10,236 bases of DNA from an uncultured Nitrososphaerota archaeon (GTDB lineage: Archaea > Korarchaeota > Korarchaeia > Korarchaeales > Korarchaeaceae): NCBI GenBank assembly GCA_964618805.1, contig CAZUBM010000041.1, forward strand, positions 1-10,236, in the 5' to 3' direction. Position numbers and translations under genes: made by a program. Shown piece after piece: positions 1 through 10,236 of the stretch (its first letter is position 1; each line of letters begins with the position of its first letter). The notes under the pieces were generated by a model. The model was not told the DNA's origin, made no database searches, and saw only the letters and a list, made by a program, of their open reading frames with translations.

Positions 1-197
1 TGCTTGGCAATACCTTGATAACCATCCTTCTCCAATCTTGTCCTGACATACTCATCATAGAACTGAATAGCCTCGTTGATCAACGTCGTCATCGGCTTTC
101 CCGTCAGTAGTTTGAGCCTGTAGAGCCTCCTCACATTCTCCGCCTCGACAAACGGTTGATAGAGCCTCTCACGCTTTGCTTTCAGACCCACCACCAT
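1..197 (-). CDS. Small putative ribbon-helix-helix-like DNA-binding protein, 3' end runs off the window (not in ORF track)
   Basis: Manual translation from ATG at 197: MVVGLKAKRERLYQPFVEAENVRRLYRLKLLTGKPMTTLINEAIQFYDEYVRTRLEKDGYQGIAK..., open to base 1. The strand-helix-'GKPMTTLINEAI' helix pattern fits RHH proteins. It overlaps the end of 169..654. Confidence 0.7.
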   Translation of the reverse strand, partial: MVVGLKAKRERLYQPFVEAENVRRLYRLKLLTGKPMTTLINEAIQFYDEYVRTRLEKDGYQGIAK

Positions 198-654
198 CAC
201 CCAACTTAAATAACCCCATCTGCTCATACTCCTTCTTGAACTCCTTGGCTTGCCTTTTCCTCACCTTCACCACTTTCTTCTGCTCCTTCCTGATCCAATG
301 CTTCAGCTCTCTCAACTTGCTCTGCTCATGATCTGAAAGCTCCTTAGGCACCCACTCATAAGCATCTGCTCCACGCTTCTTCATGTACCTGCCGGCCAGA
401 TACAGGTAGATGTTCGCCCACTCCTGGGACATTGGCAAAGCAAAGCTAGCACAATAGAGGTAAGCCAGGGCTTCGGCATCCGTAGCATAATCATCTTCCC
501 CCTTGTAGACCCTTACTATCCTTTCGATCGTTATCTGATCTTTGATCCACTTTGGGAGTGTGTCAGCCCAGCCCTCATCATACACGATCACAGGGTCGGT
601 GAAAACCTCAAGCAAGCGAGCGATGTATTCATCCAGTTTAGGGCGGTGCGACAT
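169..654 (-). CDS. Hypothetical protein (161 aa), probably mobile-element associated
   Basis: Long ORF with natural composition and motif-like blocks (FTDPVIVY..GWADTLPKW, ATDAEALAYLY.AS...PM..EW..IYLY). It is co-oriented in the operon. I recall similar proteins from Dehalococcoidia islands, but this is unverified. Confidence 0.85.
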   Translation of the reverse strand: MSHRPKLDEYIARLLEVFTDPVIVYDEGWADTLPKWIKDQITIERIVRVYKGEDDYATDAEALAYLYCASFALPMSQEWANIYLYLAGRYMKKRGADAYEWVPKELSDHEQSKLRELKHWIRKEQKKVVKVRKRQAKEFKKEYEQMGLFKLGDGGGSESKA

Positions 655-672
655 TCAATCACGATTTAGCTC

Positions 673-686
673 AAAACGGCCGTTTT
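673..686. repeat. Perfect 14-bp palindrome AAAACGGCCGTTTT
   Basis: Read directly. It lies in the 34-bp gap between 689..997 and 169..654. Confidence 0.75.
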
Positions 687-688
687 CT

Positions 689-997
689 TCATGCAGTTGC
701 AACGTAGTAGGCAGACTTGGAAACGGTCACCTTCCTAACCAACTTCCACTTTTCCTCTAGCCTCTTGAGGACTTTGCAGCAGCGCGACTTACTGATGCCT
801 GTCAGAAAAGAGATCAAGTCTATGCTCAAAGGCTCCTTTGCCTCTCTCAAAACTTTCAAGATAACACGATCATAAGGCTCAGTCTCTGGCAATTCTCTAT
901 ACTTCTCCAGAATCCTCTTTGCTCTACGCTTTGCCTCCCTATCAACGTACTCCATCAATTCCTCGAGTGTACTAAACTGGGGTTGGTGTTCTTTCAT
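689..997 (-). CDS. Winged helix-turn-helix DNA-binding protein (TrmB/IclR-like HTH)
   Basis: ILKVLREAKEPLSIDLISFLTGISKSRCCKVLKRLEEKWKLVRKV...YY is a typical wHTH with beta wing. ATGA overlap (994-997) with the upstream gene. Confidence 0.85.
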   Translation of the reverse strand: MKEHQPQFSTLEELMEYVDREAKRRAKRILEKYRELPETEPYDRVILKVLREAKEPLSIDLISFLTGISKSRCCKVLKRLEEKWKLVRKVTVSKSAYYVATA

Positions 998-1941
998 GCT
1001 TCAACACCGCAAAACTCATAAACCCTCCACCTCTTCTCCCCTATGGCTCTTACAAGCCCTTTTGCCCTAAGTCTTCTCATGTACTCCCTGAAGGTTCGTT
1101 CGCTCTTTGCCTTTTCAGCCCTCTCGACATACAGCTCATAGAGCTTGGAAGCCGGAAGCCTCTTCCTTTCCTTCATCAATTCCAAGAGTATTTGCTCGTC
1201 ATCCCTCGTCTTCTGTTCATTAATGGGATTGGGTATGTCTGGCTCTCGAACGATTCTCCTATTCTCGCTCTCAGCCCTTGCTATACAAGCTTTCAGAAGG
1301 CTTATGGCGAGGGTAACGTTGCCACCAGACTTTTCAGCGATACTACTGATGATTGTACTCTTACAGCAACCTTCGCTTAAAGCTCGTCTAGCTCTTTCTG
1401 CAAGTATCCTGTAGACCTGCTCATCCGTATACCTAGCGACATGCAAGAAGTTAGGTATTAGTGACATAGCATGTTTGCTCAGTCTTTTGAAGCTTGCCCT
1501 CTGGTTCGAGGCCAAGATTATTGTGATGCTCAGGCCGAACAGCTTATCTATTATGCTAACATCTCTTAACTCTTCGAAATGGTCTATACAAACTGTCATC
1601 CTTTTACCCATTCTCCTTAGCCTTTCAATCAGGTAGGAGTTGCTCCTAGGAATGGCACTTAAAGGGTTGAGGTTGGATAGGATTTCCTTCAGGATGCTGT
1701 TCGTGGTCTGGCATAGCACAGCATCAACATAGACTGCTCTAGCCTTGCTTATAGAGTTAAACTCCTCGATGGTTAACTTCAGCAAGGCTGTCTTTCCAGA
1801 GCCCGATGGGCCATAGATGAAAGTGTTAACGTTGTTCAGCAAAGCACGCAGGAGTTTTGCTTTCTCCTCTTCCCTGAACAAGAGCTCCTGCGGAACATAA
1901 GCATGTGACAAGACTTCTGAATCGATGAGCAAGCGTCGCAT
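994..1941 (-). CDS. Orc1/Cdc6-like AAA+ ATPase with C-terminal winged helix
   Basis: N-terminal LSHAYVPQELLFREEE (Orc1/Cdc6 'L...YVPE.L..RE' box), NTFIYGPSGSGKT Walker A, VYVDA, degenerate Walker B VCIDHFEEL, sensor-1 ILASN, YTDEQVYRILAERA helix and Cdc6-type WH (LYELY...SERTFREYMRRLRAKGLV). Confidence 0.85.
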   Translation of the reverse strand: MRRLLIDSEVLSHAYVPQELLFREEEKAKLLRALLNNVNTFIYGPSGSGKTALLKLTIEEFNSISKARAVYVDAVLCQTTNSILKEILSNLNPLSAIPRSNSYLIERLRRMGKRMTVCIDHFEELRDVSIIDKLFGLSITIILASNQRASFKRLSKHAMSLIPNFLHVARYTDEQVYRILAERARRALSEGCCKSTIISSIAEKSGGNVTLAISLLKACIARAESENRRIVREPDIPNPINEQKTRDDEQILLELMKERKRLPASKLYELYVERAEKAKSERTFREYMRRLRAKGLVRAIGEKRWRVYEFCGVEA

Positions 1942-2090
1942 GATGTAATGTTCGAGCTAAGGTTTGGAATATCTTACGAGAGTGTAGGTTTCCGTTATGC
2001 CGTTAGACAAGGTTGACCTCTCGGCGTCACGGATTCTCAACTACGGGTAAACGAAATGTGTGGCCAGTGCATTTCTTAAACTTGATACGC

Positions 2091-2621
2091 TTGAACCAAG
2101 ACGAAGAACTGGCCCGCCTAGAAGCGATGGAGAGCTACATTCGCTACAAAGCATTCTACTTTGCAGAAGAAGACCCCATGACACAGGAAGACCTAGCTCA
2201 AGAAGCAAGGGAAGCTATCATCAAAGCGTTGAGAAAAGACCATTATCCGAGGAGCTATCTCAGAAAGGTTGTGCAGGGGGCGATGATCCACTATCTTCGG
2301 CAGGGAAGGAGCGTGGATTACCACAGGCCTCGTCAAACTCAAGAGTATAGGATAATGAGCCTCGATAGGTCGATCGGAGATGGCACTCCATTGGAAGAGG
2401 TCATCCACGTAAGGGGTAGTTTTGAGGACATGGCAGACGCGAGGATGATGCTCAACCAGTTGGAAGCTTATCTCAATGAGCGTGAGAGGTATGTGTTTAA
2501 CCTGCTCAGAAAGGGATACTCACAGGCAGATGTAGCGAGGATGATGGGATGTACGAGGTCTTGGATCTACTACATAATGGAGGATATCAGGAGGAAGGCA
2601 AAAGAAGTGTGGAGAATCTAA
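2091..2621 (+). CDS. Sigma-70 family (ECF-like, regions 2 and 4) RNA polymerase sigma factor
   Basis: Region 2-like QEDLAQEAREAIIKAL...SYLRKVVQGAMIHYLR. Region 4 HTH LNERERYVFNLLRKGYSQADVARMMGCTRSWIYYIMEDIRRK. Start uncertain: TTG 2013, TTG 2091 or ATG 2127, with no clear SD. Confidence 0.85.
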   Translation: MNQDEELARLEAMESYIRYKAFYFAEEDPMTQEDLAQEAREAIIKALRKDHYPRSYLRKVVQGAMIHYLRQGRSVDYHRPRQTQEYRIMSLDRSIGDGTPLEEVIHVRGSFEDMADARMMLNQLEAYLNERERYVFNLLRKGYSQADVARMMGCTRSWIYYIMEDIRRKAKEVWRI

Positions 2622-2684
2622 AAGCGGGAGATGAGCGGTGAAAACACAAGCCCTATGTAGAGAGGCACAAAGCATAAAGGTGAG

Positions 2685-2706
2685 GCTCAAATGGTAACAT
2701 TTGAGC
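2685..2706. terminator. Perfect 9-bp-stem hairpin between convergent genes (terminator or operator)
   Basis: GCTCAAATG-GTAA-CATTTGAGC, followed by only a short T tract (TTCT). Confidence 0.45.
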
Positions 2707-2768
2707 TTCTAAATGGCTCCATAATTCGATAGCGATATAGGTTAAAGGCTTTGAGATTCACCTAGAAT

Positions 2769-3251
2769 TTACACTTCAACTATTAATGCTTCTGCTTGCT
2801 CACCTATCTTCTGGGCAATTATCTGCGCTTTCTCAAGATGCTCCCCCATCTTCTGCTCAGTAAGTTTACCTTGCTCATGTAAATCTCTGATCTGCTCCAC
2901 GATCGATGCATATTCGGAGAACAGCTCGCCTATTTTAGCATCTCTTATAGTTATTGAAGCTATACTGGCCGCAACAACAGTATTAACACTTACCTTAGCA
3001 TACTGAGCTAAATCCGTTCGGCCTTGGCGAAGCCCTTCTGCCATAAATCTTAAATGAGTTAATGATTGACCGAGTAGATTCAATAGAGAATCGACTTGCG
3101 TTTCCAAACGTTCTTTCTTCCATTGCAACCTTAGATCATGCAAGGCCCATTGCCTCTGTTTCCATTGCAACAAGAAAGTTCCAAGACTGCCAATAATAAC
3201 CCCTAAAAGACTACTAAGAGCGGGAATAAATGTTAACCATGGCCTATCCAT
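2769..3251 (-). CDS. Hypothetical protein with a single N-terminal transmembrane helix and helical C-terminal domain
   Basis: Hydrophobic FIPALSSLLGVIIGSLGTFLL followed by WKQRQW. SD-like GAGGT shortly upstream of the ATG. Confidence 0.8.
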   Translation of the reverse strand: MDRPWLTFIPALSSLLGVIIGSLGTFLLQWKQRQWALHDLRLQWKKERLETQVDSLLNLLGQSLTHLRFMAEGLRQGRTDLAQYAKVSVNTVVAASIASITIRDAKIGELFSEYASIVEQIRDLHEQGKLTEQKMGEHLEKAQIIAQKIGEQAEALIVEV

Positions 3252-3287
3252 TTCCCTACCTCTAATTTTAAAAACACTGCGAGAAGA

Positions 3288-3523
3288 CTCATGGTTCGCT
3301 CATTTTTGAGGGACTTTCGCAGATTTGGGGCTTGGCAAGCGCTGATTCTTAAGCATTGTGATTTACTTCAAGCTTGCCAAAGCCATTTCCCCCTACTTCT
3401 TTGCAAGCAGTGTACTTCTTGGTGGGGCATCAGCCCAAATTCGCCCTAAAAATGAGCAATATGTTGCTCTGAAGTGGAGACAAAATCCTATAATATGCCT
3501 CAAAAAAATGAGCGAACGGGGAG
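3288..3523. mobile_element. MITE-like non-coding element with imperfect terminal inverted repeats
   Basis: Left end CTCatgGTTCGCTCATTTTTGAGG (3288-3311). Right end reverse complement CTCcccGTTCGCTCATTTTTTTGAGG (3498-3523). Internal inverted repeats are present. Flanks AGAAGA/AAAAGA may be a decayed target duplication. Confidence 0.55.
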
Positions 3524-3825
3524 AAAAGAGGTTTATTAAGCCCAATGTAAGCAAAGGTTGTGTAAGTTTCATAGACCAAGATAAATCATTTGGCGGTCTC
3601 CCTGCAAAGCGTTGCCGCAATCAGGATGAATGCCACCTGTAAGGTCAGAGCGCAATGCAATGCCTCCGTCGTACCACACTGTGCTTGCGAATGTTGGGCG
3701 TCTTTGCACATGATACTCATTTTGACCCATCAACGGGAAGTATGGTTGTAGTATTAGAGCGGTAATGATCACCAGCAACGAGAGGGAGACTCAATTATTT
3801 AAGCTTTAATAAACAACATATACAC

Positions 3826-4134
3826 ATGTGTCAGGACATGTATCAGGTAAAAAGAGAAGACTGCAATAAGTTAACCAAAGGATCCTGTGAAGGATGTCCA
3901 ATTTATGGAGAGTTTCTTGAGGCGATGAGGCGAGATGCTTGGGAAAGAACTGGCAAGCCTGCTGGACTTCCCTTCGATTGGTTTACAAAATTATATACAT
4001 GGGGTCCAAGAGCTCAAGAAGTAGTCAAAAAGTGTCCTCCTGAAGCCCGTCCAGATTACCCTCAAGATGGTGAGACATTTGACGAAATGATGGAAAGAGT
4101 AGGAAAAGATTTAAGAAGGTACGCAATAAAATAA
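3826..4134 (+). CDS. Hypothetical protein (102 aa) with N-terminal Cys cluster
   Basis: Protein-like composition with C-x7-C-x2-C. It fills the space up to the convergent STAND stop. No clear SD, so the start is uncertain. Confidence 0.6.
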   Translation: MCQDMYQVKREDCNKLTKGSCEGCPIYGEFLEAMRRDAWERTGKPAGLPFDWFTKLYTWGPRAQEVVKKCPPEARPDYPQDGETFDEMMERVGKDLRRYAIK

Positions 4135-4140
4135 GCCCAC

Positions 4141-6666
4141 TTAACTTTTGTTTTCTCCCTGCTGCTGCTTCTCCTCAAGATGTCTATAGTAACTCTCCGT
4201 TATAGAGTACATGTACTTGGCTCCTGCAGCTTTGTATACATTGAGGGCTTTGCGAGCATATTCTTTTGCCTCATCTATTCTCCCTAAGTGCTCCTCGATC
4301 TCGGCCCGAAGTTTGAGAGCGTAGGCATAGGCTGAAGAAGGAGGGGATATCTCTTGAGCTAGTTGAAGCGATTGATCTGAGCGTTGCCAAGCTTCTCGCC
4401 ATATTCCCAATGCGGCATACACCAAGGCCGTTTCACTTAGTCCTTCAACAATATCATCCAAGTACCCTAGTTCTCTACGAAGTTCTAGTGACTCCTCAAG
4501 GATTGTACGGGCCTCTAAAAGTTTATTTTGTCTATCCTTACCCTTTAAGAGCTGTGCTTGTCTATATTTTACAAGTCCTAATGAGGATTTTGTATAAGCT
4601 ATCCATTGCTTCCGCTCGCATTCTAGCCACAACTCTGAAGATTGAATGAAGAGTTTACTAGCCTTGTCTAATTCTCCCCTTTCCCTAGCCATTCGGCCCA
4701 TGTTATACAAAGCTAATGCCTGGACTTCTGGATATCCCATCTTCTTTGCAAATTCTAATTGCTTAGTAAAAAGCTCCTCAGCTTTTCGCTCCTCTCCGAG
4801 GACTAAATATGTCCACCCAATGTCAAACACCTCAAACCAGGCTTTCTTCCTTTCCTCACCCAACGCTTGGCAAGCGACGCATGCTTCCTTTCCCCACCTA
4901 AGGCGTTCATCAAGATACCGCAAGATACCTAACGATTGGCCTATCAGGTCAAAAAGATCTATTATGTAGCGCCAAGCTTCGTATGGACGACACCCTTCAC
5001 ATTCAAAATTGGCGTCTGCAAGAGCACGACATCCTTGCAGGGTCGCGAGCACGTTCCATTTCTCATCCCCCCTTCCTTCTCTAAGGAACCTCAGCTTTTG
5101 ATCTATTGTGGGCCTTTCCTTCAAAGCTTGAATGTAGTAATTGGCTAAACCCACGTAGGCTTTGGCAGTGAACTCCGAGAGACTTATGCCATCAATGGGC
5201 CCTTTCTGTTTTTTCAAGAACTCATGGGCAGATGTACTGCGAAGCATGAATCGTGAATCGGACCTAGTAACGAAGTTGAAGTTACATAGAGTACCTAAAC
5301 CATGTAAAGCCTGAGATGAATCCAATTGACTCGCAGCAGTGATAGCCTCTATGGATGCTGAAAAGGGGACAAATATAGGCATAACATGCAATACTTGCTT
5401 AGCTTCTCTCCCTAATCGCTTGTAAGCCTCACCCCACATAAAATCCAATACTACTTTATCCTTAACGAACTTCTTGATAGCTTCCTTCAAGGGGAATTCA
5501 GTGCTTTTCATTAATCTTAGAGTGAGGTTTATGGCTAAAGGATTACCTTTAGTAGCCTTATATAAATCCCGTTTTTCCTCCTCAGTTAAAATATCTAAGC
5601 TTTGCAATGTGCAAACCTGATCCATCAATTCAGAGGCCTCATCAAAGCTCAGACCAGAGATGTCAACGATTTGGTCTCCGATGTTAAATATCCTTCGACT
5701 AGTAAGAAGAACCTTGCTCGGCCCTTTATATTGCCTTAGAAATATACGGAGTTGATCTAAAGCATCAGGGTCAAACTCCTCCAAGTTATCAATGATTATG
5801 AGGCAATTGCGATTTTTCAAGAGATCATTGACAATTTCGAGCTTCCTATTAAAGCCATTAGGCCCTGACACAGCACGATATTCGAGGATGTGCGCGATAG
5901 TATCTAATACGCCCTCACATGAAGTGACCGTTTTGATGTAGGGGACCTGAGCAAATGAAGGGACTTGCTCTGCTCGCACTACGAGTACCTTCTTCTTTGC
6001 TGAAGCCCAGATGATTGCCTCAAAGAGTCTTCGTTCTTTACATCTTCTTCCCACCTCGTAGGCCAAGGCGGTTTTTCCTACTCCTGGAGGACCATTCAAA
6101 GTTATAATCCAAGGCTTTCCCCTAAGCATTTCGATAATTATCTCTGCAAGCTTATCCTCCTTCTTGTATCCTGGGATAATGGGTTTATCTTCGAACCGAT
6201 TGTATCGCTCAATATATTGGGCAAAAATAAATGATTGAGGAGGCAAATTATCCTTAACCACAACAGCTAGCCGTGTTTCCTCTTCCCATTCCCAGATTGT
6301 AGCAGCTATCTCCTCTCCAGCGAGACGCTTTAGTTCTTGGAATGTAGCTCTTTCTACACCAATCCTGTCGGCAACCGTTCTCCACCTTTCCCCTCTTTTA
6401 TAAAAATCCCTAAGAAGGATGTATATTCGCCAAGGCTGTGTGTTTAAATCTTCTGGAAATGACGGTTGCTGAGCATCTATAGCCTCCCACAGCAAGCTTT
6501 TTAAATTGTTGCCAAGATAAACTGGACTTCGATCGGGGGAGGAGAGCATACGGTTCTCCAGTATTTTGAGGCTCGTAAGCCTCCTAAGACCCGCCAATTC
6601 TCTATACCGATTCAACCTAGCTAGTTTTAATGCTTTTCTAATATCCTTTACAAATTCTTCATTCAT
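4141..6666 (-). CDS. STAND NTPase: N-terminal HTH-containing domain, NB-ARC, C-terminal TPR repeats (~841 aa)
   Basis: Walker A GPPGVGKT, Walker B LIIIDNLE, VLLTSRR, GxP motif KGNPLAI, TPR-like repeats (ALALYNMGRMARERGELDKA, AYTKSSLGLV, AYALKLRAEIEEHLGRIDEA) and HTH WRTVADRIGVERATFQELK. Start placed at ATG 6666 (SD GGGGGA; alternative ATG 6678) because a promoter lies inside the ORF-track extension to 6810. Confidence 0.92.
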   Translation of the reverse strand: MNEEFVKDIRKALKLARLNRYRELAGLRRLTSLKILENRMLSSPDRSPVYLGNNLKSLLWEAIDAQQPSFPEDLNTQPWRIYILLRDFYKRGERWRTVADRIGVERATFQELKRLAGEEIAATIWEWEEETRLAVVVKDNLPPQSFIFAQYIERYNRFEDKPIIPGYKKEDKLAEIIIEMLRGKPWIITLNGPPGVGKTALAYEVGRRCKERRLFEAIIWASAKKKVLVVRAEQVPSFAQVPYIKTVTSCEGVLDTIAHILEYRAVSGPNGFNRKLEIVNDLLKNRNCLIIIDNLEEFDPDALDQLRIFLRQYKGPSKVLLTSRRIFNIGDQIVDISGLSFDEASELMDQVCTLQSLDILTEEEKRDLYKATKGNPLAINLTLRLMKSTEFPLKEAIKKFVKDKVVLDFMWGEAYKRLGREAKQVLHVMPIFVPFSASIEAITAASQLDSSQALHGLGTLCNFNFVTRSDSRFMLRSTSAHEFLKKQKGPIDGISLSEFTAKAYVGLANYYIQALKERPTIDQKLRFLREGRGDEKWNVLATLQGCRALADANFECEGCRPYEAWRYIIDLFDLIGQSLGILRYLDERLRWGKEACVACQALGEERKKAWFEVFDIGWTYLVLGEERKAEELFTKQLEFAKKMGYPEVQALALYNMGRMARERGELDKASKLFIQSSELWLECERKQWIAYTKSSLGLVKYRQAQLLKGKDRQNKLLEARTILEESLELRRELGYLDDIVEGLSETALVYAALGIWREAWQRSDQSLQLAQEISPPSSAYAYALKLRAEIEEHLGRIDEAKEYARKALNVYKAAGAKYMYSITESYYRHLEEKQQQGENKS

Positions 6667-6706
6667 TTTTTCCCCCATGTTAACTTGAGTTTGGGAAAGT
6701 ATGAGA

Positions 6707-6744
6707 AAGAACAACCCAACAGAAGTAAGAACCCAACCCAGAAG
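6707..6744. repeat. Imperfect tandem direct repeat in the STAND gene 5' leader
   Basis: AAGAACAACCCAACAGAAG-T-AAGAACCCAACCCAGAAG. Confidence 0.6.
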
Positions 6745-6769
6745 CAACGCGGGTTTTTTTCTATCCTCA

Positions 6770-6798
6770 ATTATACCTGAAATTGCCCCCCTTGTAAA
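6770..6798 (-). promoter_or_regulatory. Sigma-70 housekeeping-type promoter for the STAND gene
   Basis: Minus strand TTTACA (6798-6793), 17-bp spacer, TATAAT (6775-6770). Confidence 0.7.
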
Positions 6799-7006
6799 TA
6801 GGTTTGGCAAAACTCAAGAAAAACTGTGGAAGATCACTGAAATTCTACTGGACCTTGTATCTAATTTCATAAGCTCCAAGCTAGCAAAATTCCAGATGCA
6901 TTAATAAATCAAAGTTCTATAATATAGCTAGAAAGCAGGAGAAACGCAATAGAAGGATTGGCCGCAGTACCCAAACATGAAATATTGGCTTTAGGAGTCT
7001 AAACTA

Positions 7007-7294
7007 ATGAACCAACAACTTATCTTGGAGTTTCTGCGAGGGGAGTTAGATTACCTTGACAGTCAGCTCAGATGGCTTTGGGATACCTTGGAACAAGCCA
7101 AAGCTAAAGGTGACGCTGATGGAGTGCAATTTTGGGAACAAGCCTTTCTATCTAAACTTAACCGATACGAAAATGTCGCTGATCAGATAACTCAGATTAC
7201 TCAGGAAACTATATTGTACCAGCAGAATATTGCACATAGAAGAAGGGGCAAAGGCTTATGCTTAGGCCGGTCGACTATTATAGACAAAAATTAG
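7007..7294 (+). CDS. Small helical hypothetical protein (95 aa)
   Basis: SD AGGAG upstream, amphipathic helices, overlaps the start of the DksA/TraR gene. Confidence 0.7.
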   Translation: MNQQLILEFLRGELDYLDSQLRWLWDTLEQAKAKGDADGVQFWEQAFLSKLNRYENVADQITQITQETILYQQNIAHRRRGKGLCLGRSTIIDKN

Positions 7295-7578
7295 AAGAGG
7301 AGAAGAAAAGAATAGAAACGTATGCCCAAAGGGATTGTGAATTCTCCGCGGACGCCACTGGACTTTGGCAAAAAATGGAACACGAGTGGCGATGCCGGGA
7401 AAAGGCAAGGCGTCTCAAAGAGATAAGAAGGGCTTTGCAAAGATTGGAAGAGGGTGTGTATGGGGTATGTGAGAGATGCGGAAGACCGATTAATCCTGAA
7501 AGGTTAGAGATTTTGCCGTGGTCCACTTTATGTGTCAAATGCAAGAATTATGAAGAAAGCCACTCTAACCAATATTAG
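7258..7578 (+). CDS. DksA/TraR C4-type zinc finger protein
   Basis: Coiled-coil followed by ALQRLEEGVYGVCERCGRPINPERLEILPWSTLCVKCK, the canonical DksA/TraR CxxC-x17-CxxC signature. Confidence 0.93.
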   Translation: MLRPVDYYRQKLEEEKKRIETYAQRDCEFSADATGLWQKMEHEWRCREKARRLKEIRRALQRLEEGVYGVCERCGRPINPERLEILPWSTLCVKCKNYEESHSNQY

Positions 7579-7608
7579 TTTCCCAACTCTTAAAAAGGTG
7601 AGGAAGAT

Positions 7609-7701
7609 ATGAGCCAGACCCAAATCATCTTACTGCTAGTAGCGTATATTCTTGGATTGCTCACTGCCATGATAATATTGGCACCGAGGTATACTAGGTG
7701 A
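7609..7701 (+). CDS. 30-aa single-pass membrane peptide (below ORF-track cutoff)
   Basis: MSQTQIILLLVAYILGLLTAMIILAPRYTR*, preceded by SD AAGGTGAGG. Long hydrophobic core and basic tail. Confidence 0.7.
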   Translation: MSQTQIILLLVAYILGLLTAMIILAPRYTR

Positions 7702-7847
7702 TCATCTTTCCCAAACTGAGTATTTTTAGGGTTCACACTCCAATCAGATGCTGAAACGCACAAAAACCCAGCACCGAATGGTGGTGAGGAGGAGAATATG
7801 TTTTGCTCCCGAATCTGTTAAAGTTAACATGGTTGCACACCTTACCT

Positions 7848-7908
7848 AAAATTGCCTGCTAGTACCTGAGAGACGCAAGAAACCTAAAAGGTGCTGACAG
7901 GCAATTTT
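7848..7908. terminator. Long stem-loop between convergent transcription units, probably a bidirectional terminator
   Basis: AAAATTGCCTGCTAGTACCT pairs with AGGTGCTGACAGGCAATTTT (20 bp, 2 G-U, 1 mismatch) around a 21-nt loop, with A and T tracts at the ends. Confidence 0.6.
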
Positions 7909-8028
7909 TGTTGTATGATAATCTCAAAGTGATTGTGATTTTACTTTGGTTGGAGTAAAGCTAAAGATTTGTAAAGCACTATCGGAAATCTATGCGTGGA
8001 TAAGATTGATTTCATCCTCTCTCTTAAA

Positions 8029-8514
8029 TCAATGCCGAGTATTTGGCGAGAAAAGTAAAGAGCATAAAAAGATGATCTGAGGTGATCCATACGCCGTATA
8101 GGTACGGCTGTGCCTCAAACGGTGCCTGAAGCCAATCTTCCATTCTTCATATCCAGGGGCTTGCACCTCTAGAAAAACGTAATCAAGAACCTCACCTGGA
8201 AGGGTAAACTTAAACTCAGAAACATCTTCAGCTATAACCTCACCACCCAATATAACACGGGAAGCTATAACAGGTTCACCAGTGGCAGCATCTCGAATTT
8301 TAGCGATGACTGTCAATCGAGGGTTTGACTCTGGCGTTCCTTCTATAGGCTCAGGAAAGGTTACGATGCTTTCGCCAGGAGCTAGCTTCGTAACTATTGG
8401 AGTTATGATTAGTTCAGGTGTAGTAGCTTTTTTGGATTGGTTGAAGAAGATGCCAACGATAAAGCCGATAGCTAGCAGGATAATGGCGATGGTGATTATC
8501 CCTAGTTTCTTCAC
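8029..8514 (-). CDS. Exported or membrane-anchored protein with carboxypeptidase-regulatory/PEGA-like beta-sandwich (161 aa)
   Basis: Start reassigned to GTG 8514 (AGGAGG 6 nt upstream), giving the signal/TM segment MKKLGIITIAIILLAIGFIVGIFF. A Pro/Thr linker follows, then IRDAATGEPV...LEVQAPGY motifs. Confidence 0.8.
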   Translation of the reverse strand: MKKLGIITIAIILLAIGFIVGIFFNQSKKATTPELIITPIVTKLAPGESIVTFPEPIEGTPESNPRLTVIAKIRDAATGEPVIASRVILGGEVIAEDVSEFKFTLPGEVLDYVFLEVQAPGYEEWKIGFRHRLRHSRTYTAYGSPQIIFLCSLLFSPNTRH

Positions 8515-8576
8515 AAGGGGCCTCCTTTTGAGTGAAAAGATTATCTTCCGCACTTTTTGATACAAACTCCAATACT

Positions 8577-8721
8577 GGTAGTCTCCCTATAAAGAGTTGG
8601 TGAAAGGCGGGGGGACAACAACCGTGGTGAGAATCTCCTCGATGCTCCAGATATGGTCGGTTAACTTCGCTGCCATGGCTAGTGTCCGGCGTAGCCAGCG
8701 TCGTCCTACCTCAAGCCTTGG
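8577..8721 (-). mobile_element. IS1-family insertion sequence remnant (transposase C-terminus plus one end)
   Basis: Frame 8721..8587 reads [44 protein letters not shown], matching the 'RTPAMAAGLTDHIW..EELL' tail of IS1-family transposases. It is followed by an end beginning GGTAGT (8577), consistent with IS1 GGnnnT termini. Confidence 0.8.
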
Positions 8722-9996
8722 TCATGTGGAATTTTGAGGGCTTGCCGGTGGAATAGGATTTTGACTACTAGTTTGCTGAGGAACTCCTGGTGCTGTGATC
8801 TCCTCAGTGCTCTGATGGACGACTTTTCTCGCTGAAGGAGGACAATACATTTTGGCCTGGTGAGCGTAGCGGTCATCAGAGGCGTGAACCAAATTTTCAT
8901 AGAATGATGCAATCATTAGGTCCCTAGGAGAAGAATCCAACAACTCTTGTGCTTCTTCATGAAGAAATGCAAAATTCGATATCTCACTTATGATAATCTT
9001 CCTTTTAAGAGGGTCAGCCGTTAGATACTCGTATGCGAAGGGATAAACTCGTTGAGCAGTACAGCAGAATGCCTGGAGACCACCCCCATACTTCACTACG
9101 ACGTTTTCCCTACGAAGAATAAGGCCCGACAATGCTAGGCAATACAAAGCTTTATTCGGCCACTTCTTCTGATGGAATGCGATTGACAGGCTCGCTAATA
9201 GATGTGAAAACTTAGTAAGGTCAGTGAAGTAGAATGATTCCGGGTTATCACGATCTCTAGCGAATTCACATGATGTCTCTAGGAAGTTCTCGAGAGCGAT
9301 GTCTGGCTGACCAATTTGGAGACGTGTATGACCGTAGATATACATACCATTTCCCAACTCCTGACCAGGCTCAAACTCTTTTGATAGCTCCCGATGAACA
9401 TGGAAGCATCTTAAAGCGTCTTTTAAATGTTCAGTGTGCCACAATACATAAGCAGTTCGCCATAGCAAGCCCAGAGTATATCTGGAAGGGGAAGCCGTGG
9501 CCTGAGCTATAGCCTTATGAGGGTCAAACAAGTCAGGATCCCATTGTCTAGTTTGGAATAGCAATTTCATGCGTATCCGCATATAGGGATTATACTCAGG
9601 GTCATTCCGGATCTCAGGATCCAGCATTTGCATACCCTCCGAAATGAGAGCATTTGCTCTTTGGATATGTCCCTTTGCTTGCTGAATGGCAGCCTCAGCC
9701 CAGTGTGATGGCGAGGGTGGAATGCACTCGGTTGGCCAAACATGGGGTATACCTGAGATGATGAGACCTTCAGCAGTATAGCCAGCAGCTCTCAGAAGTG
9801 CATTCCTTTCACTCGGGGTTAGACCCAGAACATCAGCAACCCTGATGATATTCTCATAATCTGGCCTATGAGTCTCACCGGTTTTCCATCTACGAATTGT
9901 GATGCGGTGGACAAAAATCCTTCTAGCTAATTCTGAATCATTTATTCCTCTGCGATCAATGAACTTCTTGATTAACTCCTCAAAAGTCTCTCCCAT
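8722..9996 (-). CDS. XRE-family HTH transcriptional regulator with TPR-like helical C-terminal region (424 aa)
   Basis: SELARRIFVHRITIRRWKTGETHRP..ENIIRVADVLGLTPSERNALLRAAGY is an XRE HTH. TPR-like helices follow (GMYIYGHTRLQIGQPDIALENFLE). SD GGGAGG. Confidence 0.88.
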   Translation of the reverse strand: MGETFEELIKKFIDRRGINDSELARRIFVHRITIRRWKTGETHRPDYENIIRVADVLGLTPSERNALLRAAGYTAEGLIISGIPHVWPTECIPPSPSHWAEAAIQQAKGHIQRANALISEGMQMLDPEIRNDPEYNPYMRIRMKLLFQTRQWDPDLFDPHKAIAQATASPSRYTLGLLWRTAYVLWHTEHLKDALRCFHVHRELSKEFEPGQELGNGMYIYGHTRLQIGQPDIALENFLETSCEFARDRDNPESFYFTDLTKFSHLLASLSIAFHQKKWPNKALYCLALSGLILRRENVVVKYGGGLQAFCCTAQRVYPFAYEYLTADPLKRKIIISEISNFAFLHEEAQELLDSSPRDLMIASFYENLVHASDDRYAHQAKMYCPPSARKVVHQSTEEITAPGVPQQTSSQNPIPPASPQNST

Positions 9997-10164: not shown

Positions 10165-10236
10165 GATACCGAACCTTCACTATAGGGCAATCGCATTTTT
10201 ATCCCATGAGGACTTTAAGTAGATACTTTTCATCCA

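Follow-up and report, generated by a model that had tools for sequence, protein, structure and literature searches.

The window, a stretch of 10,236 nucleotides, is contig C41 in full, one of the contigs of the archaeal genome bin G000. Its left part, positions 1 to 2621, carries on the minus strand an operon headed by the gene for an Orc1/Cdc6-like AAA+ protein of 315 aa (994-1941). Diverging from it on the plus strand is a gene for a two-domain protein of the sigma-70/ECF type (2013-2621). A first-pass annotation, made from the letters alone, listed four minus-strand open reading frames (ORFs) and the plus-strand sigma gene, a layout which we found as described. It considered this arrangement to be the replication and regulation module of an undescribed element of a bacterium, possibly a member of the Chloroflexota, which employs an archaeal-derived initiator, or else a cross-domain transfer. 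The data presented here invert this interpretation. The window belongs to an archaeal element with a bacterial-type passenger, not to a bacterial element with an archaeal initiator.

The start of the second gene of the operon (689-997, minus strand) overlaps the stop of the Orc-like gene by 4 nt. It codes for a winged-helix DNA-binding protein of 102 aa, which was labelled as such earlier and scores 22.5 bits with HTH_27 (cut-off 22.2). The third gene (169-654, minus strand) encodes a protein of 161 aa to which no function is assigned; it is conserved along with the operon, has no family match in Pfam, NCBIfam, PHROGs and PADLOC, and no usable match in the Atlas. The last ORF (3-227, minus strand) comprises 75 aa within the window and is open at the contig end. 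The RHH-like character attributed to it found no counterpart in the same four libraries (0 families at E<=0.1). Between the Orc-like and the sigma-like gene lies a divergent intergenic region (1942-2012) of 71 nt when the TTG at 2013 is taken as start, or a gap of 116 nt when an alternative gene call with a GTG start at 2058 is used, in agreement with the gap of under 200 bp noted before. The region contains no repeat cluster. By eye, we read an AT-rich hexamer some 23 nt before the ATG of the Orc-like gene as presumably TATA-like.

The bin G000 comprises 2.18 Mb in 62 contigs with a completeness of 93.7% and a contamination of 3.4%. It contains TBP, the profile of which matched only the archaeal genomes among 4 archaeal and 10 bacterial controls. 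Contig C12 encodes Rpb7, KsgA, RtcB, FKBP26 and UPF0179, and the nearest match of the RtcB is Pyrococcus PH1602. A reverse gyrase scores above cut-off, and a search of G000 for mcrA did not find this gene. The public runs which contain the window are hydrothermal-vent and marine-sediment metagenomes according to their run labels. The host is a hyperthermophilic, non-methanogenic archaeon; with TBP, an archaeal RtcB, Rpb7 and reverse gyrase in the bin the bacterial host has to be abandoned. Because of these archaeal markers the Orc1/Cdc6-like gene is native to its domain and the sigma-like gene is the foreign one. The reverse gyrase itself (C1 179830-182964) is made up of three adjoining match pieces, two of which contain an in-frame TGA; the gene may be split, frameshifted or interrupted.

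The window continues on a second contig of the bin. C41[1-55] is the reverse complement of C35[1-55], and this end overlap of 55 nt joins the contigs. After joining, the small ORF at the window's left end reaches 79 aa, terminates 4 codons past the window and converges on a gene for a tyrosine integrase of 401 aa (C35 77-1282; Phage_integrase 84.8 bits). The best plasmid matches of this integrase are haloarchaeal (40% identity, E 3e-61). C35 further encodes a second, more canonical Orc1/Cdc6 protein of 329 aa (195 bits), a DUF87/HerA-like ATPase of 595 aa accompanied by a small zinc-ribbon gene, an EVE-domain protein, an N6/N4 DNA methylase (N6_N4) and an MBL-LTD protein. Searches of plasmids and phages with the HerA-like ATPase returned no match.

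The operon is not confined to this genome. The 90% clusters of the Orc-like, the winged-helix and the 161-aa proteins have 15 members each. Judged by equal contig sizes, public contigs of 26139, 26751, 18619, 17277, 4603, 3919 and 4791 bp carry the Orc-like gene, the 161-aa ORF and/or the winged-helix gene together with the integrase; the order Orc-like, winged-helix, 161-aa ORF, integrase recurs on public contigs of 4.8 to 26.8 kb. The Orc and HerA-like genes of C35 are also on the 26751- and 18619-bp contigs. For the 4791-bp contig the protein label at NCBI is 'archaeon', and the accessions of its Orc-like gene, 161-aa ORF and integrase are two apart. Thus, the operon recurs as had been anticipated, yet in archaeal rather than in bacterial contigs, and the proposal of a replication and regulation module of an undescribed integrative element is borne out by the integrase linkage on C35 and on the public contigs. 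One can conclude that positions 1-2621 are one end of an integrative mobile element of at least 24 kb. Archaeal integrative elements with shell Orc1/Cdc6 genes are a known kind; this family of hydrothermal-vent archaea is new, no close relative of it having been recovered from the phage and plasmid collections searched or, by pattern scan, from 185,579 species genomes.

A second copy of the element family, without integrase, resides inside the archaeal chromosomal contig C12 (6649-17113). Its Orc-like protein is 48% identical to that of the window, its HerA-like and zinc-ribbon proteins are 48% and 55% identical to those of C35. The neighbours of the Orc-like and HerA-like genes in this copy include two AbiEii-type genes and an MNT/HEPN pair (toxin-antitoxin). 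ARAGORN places a 90-nt tRNA-Ile(tat) 1.2 kb from the Orc-like gene of C12.

The Orc1/Cdc6-like protein and its clade

Over residues 7-296 the 315-aa protein aligns to positions 4-347 of the 366 of the orc1/cdc6 model TIGR02928 with E 5.4e-25, and residues 178-236 match Cdc6_lid (PF22703) with 30.2 bits (cut-off 27). Sequence matches in the PDB are Pyrobaculum Cdc6 (1fnn, E 1.8e-12), Sulfolobus Orc1-1 (2qby, 8.9e-9) and Drosophila ORC5. The C-terminal 60 residues are strongly conserved and can be aligned with the C35 and the haloarchaeal proteins; R285 and G301 are invariant. A tblastn search against plasmids yielded 160 records. The listed rows and the genera named in the counts are all haloarchaeal, annotated as Cdc6/Cdc18 or orc1/cdc6; the 15 rows listed have about 27% identity and cover 96-100% of the query. 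Against viruses, 9 haloarchaeal virus records were found, including SNJ2 (E 1e-15). No relative with >30% identity was found in the plasmid and phage collections or the species genomes, and a pattern scan with the clade alignment A3 detected nothing in viral contigs or genome contigs.

Orc1/Cdc6 matches were obtained in 40 of 41 genomes (G000 and 40 relatives), mostly in ORFs of about 400 aa. A six-frame search of G000 with TIGR02928 detects copies on C5 (214.1 bits) and C35 (195.1 bits), both above cut-off, and a copy divided between C12 and C27, of which the N-terminal piece is above cut-off (189.6 bits) and the C27 piece has 153.3 bits. The divergent copies of C41 and of the C12 element have 84.5 and 54.6 bits. 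The divided copy is a canonical gene split between the end of C27 and the start of C12, the ends of which share a k-mer overlap; G000 therefore possesses two chromosomal and three element copies of Orc1/Cdc6.

A maximum-likelihood tree was calculated with 24 sequences, the groups being set partly by length. The window protein and six metagenomic or paralogous sequences form a clade of seven members with a support of 100/100. A split supported at 88/91 sets this clade apart from the phylum's long copies, which are chromosomal. The protein groups with archaeal Orc1/Cdc6 and not with bacterial ATPases, the phylogenetic check which had been suggested for it. Short length as a mark of mobile copies had to be rejected: in genome G039 a short copy adjoins a TruB/PUA (Cbf5-like) pseudouridine synthase gene.

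The features which set the clade apart are in the ATPase site. In an alignment of the seven members with five other sequences (A4) the Walker A motif GPSGSGKT, residues 43-50, is intact; G44, G47, G49 and K50 are invariant in 12/12. The Walker B motif reads D-H in all seven clade members versus D-E in the five other sequences, and the alignments with 1fnn and 2qby concur. The column of the sensor-2 arginine contains T or A in 7/7. The sensor-1 Asn is retained in three of the seven. Because Walker A is intact, the protein is expected to bind ATP, and because the Walker B glutamate and the sensor-2 arginine are replaced across the clade, it would hydrolyse ATP hardly at all. Judged by these residues, we infer a divergent Orc1/Cdc6 relative which binds ATP and DNA and is a poor ATPase. 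The conserved loss of hydrolysis residues across a natural Orc1/Cdc6 clade is new.

How does this compare with known proteins? Divergent extra Orc1/Cdc6 copies which stem from integrative elements are well described in archaea (Raymann et al. 2014, PMC3914693). Such shell copies, e.g., Cdc6/Cdc18 of haloarchaeal plasmids or that of the pleolipovirus SNJ2, resemble the window in that a divergent extra copy lies beside an integrase, and they are similarly short, about 315-335 aa. In contrast to them, none of the seven members of the window clade retains the Walker B glutamate or the sensor-2 arginine, and the clade is set off by a long branch of 1.46. In Sulfolobus islandicus an Orc1-1 Walker B mutant binds ATP without hydrolysing it, over-initiates at its origin and over-replicates, and recruits more MCM (Samson et al. 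2013, PMC3607249). This E147A protein has, like the window protein, an intact Walker A and no catalytic glutamate. It is, however, an engineered chromosomal initiator, whereas the change in the window protein is natural, clade-wide and combined with a loss of sensor-2. A third comparison is with Orc1-2, which Liu et al. 2022 (PMC9738581) present as a non-initiator Orc1 homologue, a global regulator in the DNA-damage response of Sulfolobales switched by ATP binding and hydrolysis. It shows that the Orc1/Cdc6 fold can serve as a DNA-binding regulator. The likeness concerns the fold and the putative role. Loss of ATP hydrolysis is lethal for Orc1-2, while the window clade appears to dispense with it.

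The sigma-70-like gene and the variable cargo block

The plus-strand gene (2013-2621) encodes 202 aa, or 187 aa from the GTG at 2058. It scores 50.1 bits with TIGR02937 (sigma70-ECF, cut-off 42.9) and 26.6 bits with Sigma70_r2 (PF04542, cut-off 24), so that its designation as an ECF-like sigma-70 gene was correct. The Pfam profiles for region 4 are below cut-off (Sigma70_r4 19.5, cut-off 24.1; r4_2 19.4, cut-off 25.7), and the family alignment retains region-2 as well as region-4 patterns. An AlphaFold model (pLDDT 80) predicts helical domains at residues 19-97 and 137-200, the latter a confident four-helix domain, connected by a disordered linker. The 50 rows listed from a Foldseek comparison with the PDB are without exception bacterial sigma-factor chains or RNA polymerase complexes which hold a sigma factor, among them SigB, SigH, SigL, SigE, AlgU, SigK, sigma-28 and SigA. 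The probabilities are 0.96-1.00 and full-length alignments to sigma factors are present; seven matches have E<=0.001, the best 2.8e-4. The TM-scores are about 0.3, low as expected for two hinged domains which are oriented differently. The bacterial ECF (group 4) factors, e.g., SigH and SigL of M. tuberculosis, SigE of E. coli and AlgU of P. aeruginosa, have the same succession of sigma2, linker and sigma4 in about 190-200 aa and rank among the top Foldseek matches. Unlike these, the window protein has no significant sequence match to solved sigma factors; a sequence search of the PDB returned spurious matches only, to designed Kelch-type proteins. In sequence and in its predicted fold the sigma-like gene is real.

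Relatives are rare. A word-indexed search of 5.8 billion proteins gave two matches; when 1.84 billion representatives were searched exhaustively, 75 matches had E<=1e-3, and only 3 of these were below 1e-30. Ten relatives were checked and none carries a protein name, and a JGI relative with 57% identity is labelled 'RNA polymerase sigma factor (sigma-70 family)'. The match to Sigma70_r2 in the window is the single one in all of G000; in the control searches 10/10 bacterial and 0/4 archaeal genomes were positive. The protein was found in none of the other 42 genomes of the phylum. Among 401 archaeal genomes a subfamily profile produced a full-length match solely in the window's own, and three other matches cover the last 45 positions. 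Tblastn against phages and plasmids gave no match, nor did a search of phages with the distant relative P0025. Pattern scans with the single protein or with alignment A2 uncovered no true relative in metagenome, genome or viral contigs; two candidate loci (L022, L023) were false positives: what matched there is an ORF for a DNA alkylation repair enzyme, and the contig, which also encodes FtsEX and SmpB, is bacterial.

The phylum's only other sigma gene above cut-off is on contig C10 of G001, a bin of the same genus. This contig of 11,992 bp encodes a terminase large subunit and a GH108 lysozyme with a peptidoglycan-binding domain in addition to the sigma-70 gene. It is likely a bacteriophage-like contig mis-binned into an archaeal genome, and is uninformative about archaeal sigma genes.

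Sigma-70 genes in archaea have been published for DPANN (Castelle et al. 2021, PMC8204110); there mis-binning is excluded, no anti-sigma was found and no mechanism is known. The window shares with these cases a bacterial-type sigma gene in an archaeal genome. It differs in its host, with a 2.2-Mb genome and reverse gyrase, and in that the gene is polymorphic cargo with a DksA/TraR-like gene in the same block.

The polymorphism became evident when assembled unitigs from four runs of four studies (X1, X3, X4 and X5) were mapped on the window; X1 is probably the source sample. A block of about 6 kb, 2038-8078, is variable. In X3-X5 the left flank, 1-2052, has a depth of 17.6-52 and the right-flank bin 8209-8550 of 12.6-18.6. 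Inside the block depth drops to 0-10 over 2053-3078 and 4105-7866. A joint which skips the whole block, 2037->8079, is present in X3, X4 and X5 with depths of 33, 13.7 and 13.6. Another, 2617->8072, retains the sigma gene alone, with depths of 9.4, 6.8 and 8.2 in X1, X4 and X5; it restores an Ile codon and a stop so that the sigma reading frame remains intact. In X4 the depths add up, i.e., 13.7 plus 6.8 plus about 4 approximate the flank depth. In X1 the sigma gene has a depth of 27.6 compared with 23.2-25.1 on the Orc side. The sequence 1981-2037 is common to the sigma side and to the cargo-less form, in which the Orc-like gene is immediately preceded, in the same orientation, by a 178-aa ORF of the right flank. 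In X3-X5 the stretch 8893-9918 is uncovered, from which nothing is drawn.

Because there are joints on both sides, the sigma gene has element sequence to its left and right. It is the first gene of a cargo block which is present, shortened or absent between element copies, and it is not part of a chimera. The public data agree: members of the sigma 90% cluster are on contigs of 26139, 26751 and 18619 bp, sizes at which the Orc-like gene and the integrase also occur. By these equal sizes the adjacency of the Orc-like and sigma genes recurs on other public contigs, against the misassembly which had been named as grounds for refutation. The STAND, DksA-like and XRE proteins of the window are likewise listed on a 26139-bp contig. 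The tetranucleotide composition of the cargo correlates with that of the host (r 0.895), which places it at the 12th percentile among 329 host chunks, and is no outlier; the flanks fit less well (r 0.79 over 4.2 kb).

Competing explanations

We consider it probable, at roughly 0.7, that the window is the end of an archaeal integrative element whose Orc operon runs into the integrase gene and whose sigma-like gene is polymorphic, bacterial-type cargo. In this element the 315-aa protein would bind ATP, hardly hydrolyse it, and bind element DNA via its conserved C-terminal, predicted winged helix. It could be an always-on initiator which recruits the host MCM, or a regulator of the replication and integration genes of the element. 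The more likely origin-proximal initiator may be the canonical Orc1/Cdc6 of C35, which is situated beside palindromes and an AT-rich tract. The sigma-like gene may have come from bacteria or their phages into the archaeal element; we infer an acquisition from such a bacterial or phage source. Since the host is presumed to lack a bacterial core polymerase, the subunits of which were not searched for, the sigma-like protein would at most be a sequence-specific DNA-binding regulator, or a passenger. The earlier idea of a cross-domain transfer is thus retained as far as a bacterial-type component is present, but its direction is reversed: sigma, and perhaps the DksA/TraR-like gene, would have moved into an archaeal element.

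The palindromes mentioned are in C35 1283-1564, about 1.2-1.5 kb past the window's left end, between the integrase gene and that of the 329-aa Orc1/Cdc6. Two copies of a 14-nt palindrome are spaced 45 nt apart and are followed by the AT-rich tract (C35 1325-1440). Two copies upstream of the C35 Orc gene were reached in 0/200 shuffles. Judged by its sequence, the region might serve the element as origin or operator. The palindrome has 0 matches in the window.

Several points weigh against this interpretation. The 88 bits of the 315-aa protein remain below the curated TIGR02928 cut-off of 181.3, and Cdc6_C (PF09079) attains only 14.1 bits (cut-off 25.1), which leaves the winged helix without confirmation by a profile. 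The initial description as an Orc1/Cdc6-like AAA+ protein is upheld by the E-value and the lid domain. No repeat cluster or origin-like structure adjoins the Orc-like gene in 1942-2012 and nearby. Neither att sites nor a tRNA target nor ends of the element were detected on C41 and C35. Both contigs are open at their outer ends, so that the element could exist in an integrated or in an episomal state. That public genes share a contig is deduced from equal bp sizes only. The read evidence comes from assembled unitigs instead of raw reads. None of the unitigs extends across both coding regions, all break at the k-mer node 1981-2010, the short sides of the joints measure 20-34 nt, and the sequence between the sides is not resolved by the unitigs. 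Runs which share year and habitat could stem from a single campaign. Genome binning uses composition, hence the compositional fit to the host is partly circular, and the mis-binned phage contig in G001 demonstrates that contamination does happen in such bins.

A different function of the 315-aa protein is the alternative to be taken most seriously, and we regard it as possible, though rather doubtful. The protein would not be an initiator but would serve the element as an ATP-gated regulator of transcription or as a sensor, comparable to Orc1-2, or a part of a defence island. Orc1-2 is the precedent for an Orc1 homologue as a regulator (PMC9738581), origin-like repeats are missing beside the window gene, and the second, canonical gene (195 bits) is the one which adjoins palindromes. 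Further, the C12 paralogue is located among AbiEii and MNT/HEPN toxin-antitoxin genes, the Orc-like gene is by prediction co-transcribed with that of a winged-helix protein, and PADLOC reports a weak mad8 match (E 9.9e-6). The latter is limited to the P-loop region, however. It also speaks against a mere regulator that the annotated proteins closest to it are those which replicate plasmids and viruses of haloarchaea, and a loss of hydrolysis fits a hyperactive initiator (PMC3607249).

Two other explanations concern the sigma side. One would have it as bacterial or phage DNA attached by misassembly or mis-binning. This is suggested by the fact that archaea do not use sigma factors, by the single full-length match of the subfamily in 401 archaeal genomes with none in the other 42 of the phylum, and by the phage-like contig with sigma gene, terminase and GH108 lysozyme in a bin of the same genus; also, the high-copy repeats at 3634-3708 and 8576-8713 are possible false joins. 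It is very unlikely in view of the element sequence on both sides of the gene, with 1981-2037 shared and 2617->8072 joining the right flank, the depth in X1, the three further contigs of the sigma cluster with sizes matching those of Orc-like and integrase contigs, and a cargo composition which fits the host. The other is the original proposal of a bacterial, possibly Chloroflexota, element or plasmid with an archaeal-derived initiator. Sigma-70-like, DksA/TraR-like, XRE and NB-ARC-TPR genes are indeed commonest in bacteria. The bin, however, is archaeal and holds a 48% identical Orc-like paralogue on a contig with archaeal housekeeping genes; a near-identical operon is labelled 'archaeon' by NCBI; and the best annotated matches of integrase and Orc-like protein are on haloarchaeal replicons. 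Bacterial-type promoter sites are not enriched in the window either: the sigma-70 -35/-10 promoters which had been noted amount to 19 sites compared with 16.5 +/- 4.2 in shuffles, i.e., chance level. Hardly any credence can be given to this proposal.

Returning to the archaeal element with bacterial-type cargo, the correction itself is of consequence: the apparent case of a bacterium with an archaeal initiator turns out to be one of an archaeon with a bacterial-type sigma gene. It is apparently a sigma-70-like gene beyond the published DPANN cases, caught as presence/absence cargo in natural populations, and the matched forms with and without it allow asking whether sigma genes do anything in archaea. 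A natural, hydrolysis-poor Orc1/Cdc6 would suit a mobile element, and with this clade one could test how such elements evade the control which the host exerts over origin licensing. In bacteria the sigma and DksA/TraR families act directly on RNA polymerase. One may speculate that the cargo is a working unit in which sigma-like and DksA/TraR-like proteins act on the archaeal RNA polymerase, or on pre-initiation complexes at promoters of the element, by redirecting or tuning them, while a hydrolysis-dead Orc1/Cdc6 keeps the origin permanently licensed. We deem this improbable; if true, it would be the first sigma-type factor acting in archaeal transcription, spread by a mobile element.

Other genes and repeats of the window

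The DksA/TraR-type protein, a C4 zinc-finger protein of 106 aa (7258-7578, plus strand), was annotated before and is confirmed by zf-dskA_traR (PF01258; 47.6 bits, cut-off 24.9). The scores with DksA_like (59.4, cut-off 105) and yteA (64.3, cut-off 134.4) are below the cut-offs. The earlier view of DksA as bacterial is too narrow: PF01258 is also positive in the Methanosarcina acetivorans control and above cut-off in 3 of 43 genomes of the phylum. The start of the gene is overlapped by an ORF of 95 aa (7007-7294, plus strand) which has no family match in the four libraries. An inverted repeat (7848-7908) with arms of 20 nt, 85% complementary, and a loop of 21 nt is situated in the spacer which follows the DksA/TraR-like gene. 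It lies within the cargo block, some 170 nt short of its right edge.

The cargo block further encodes a STAND NTPase of 889 aa, or 841 aa in other gene calls (4141-6810, minus strand; NB-ARC 55.1, TPR_12 48.2 bits). Its relatives have 47-60% identity and are from metagenomes only. Between it and the sigma-like gene are an ORF of 160 aa (2769-3251, minus strand) with a weak match to phrog_2050 (E 0.0019), which from reading its sequence by eye we take to have an N-terminal membrane segment and a coiled coil, and an ORF of 102 aa (3826-4134, plus strand) with no family match in the four libraries. On the right flank of the block lie the 178-aa ORF (8029-8565, minus strand), the joints ending 41-48 nt past its stop codon, and a protein of 424 aa with an N-terminal XRE/Cro-type helix-turn-helix (8722-9996, minus strand; HTH_3 28.4 bits). 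By eye, the 178-aa ORF presumably has a membrane anchor. Rfam searches at the gathering threshold gave 0 matches within the window.

Three segments of the window are high-copy repeats. A short one, 3634-3708, with a depth of 328-1861 in the four runs and loose ends at 3634 and 3708, coincides with a unitig break. The second, 8576-8713, has a depth of up to 547 in a bin and 792 at a single place, again with loose ends; its translation resembles what we assume to be a C-terminal transposase remnant. The third, 10183-10236, is at the contig end, with a depth of 1069 in X1 and loose ends at 10173 and 10183. There is no further copy of any of the three in G000, and they are thus of no use as a signature of the host. 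Probably they are pieces of an insertion sequence which abundant members of the community carry in many copies; they account for the breaks between unitigs and for the place where the contig ends on the right.

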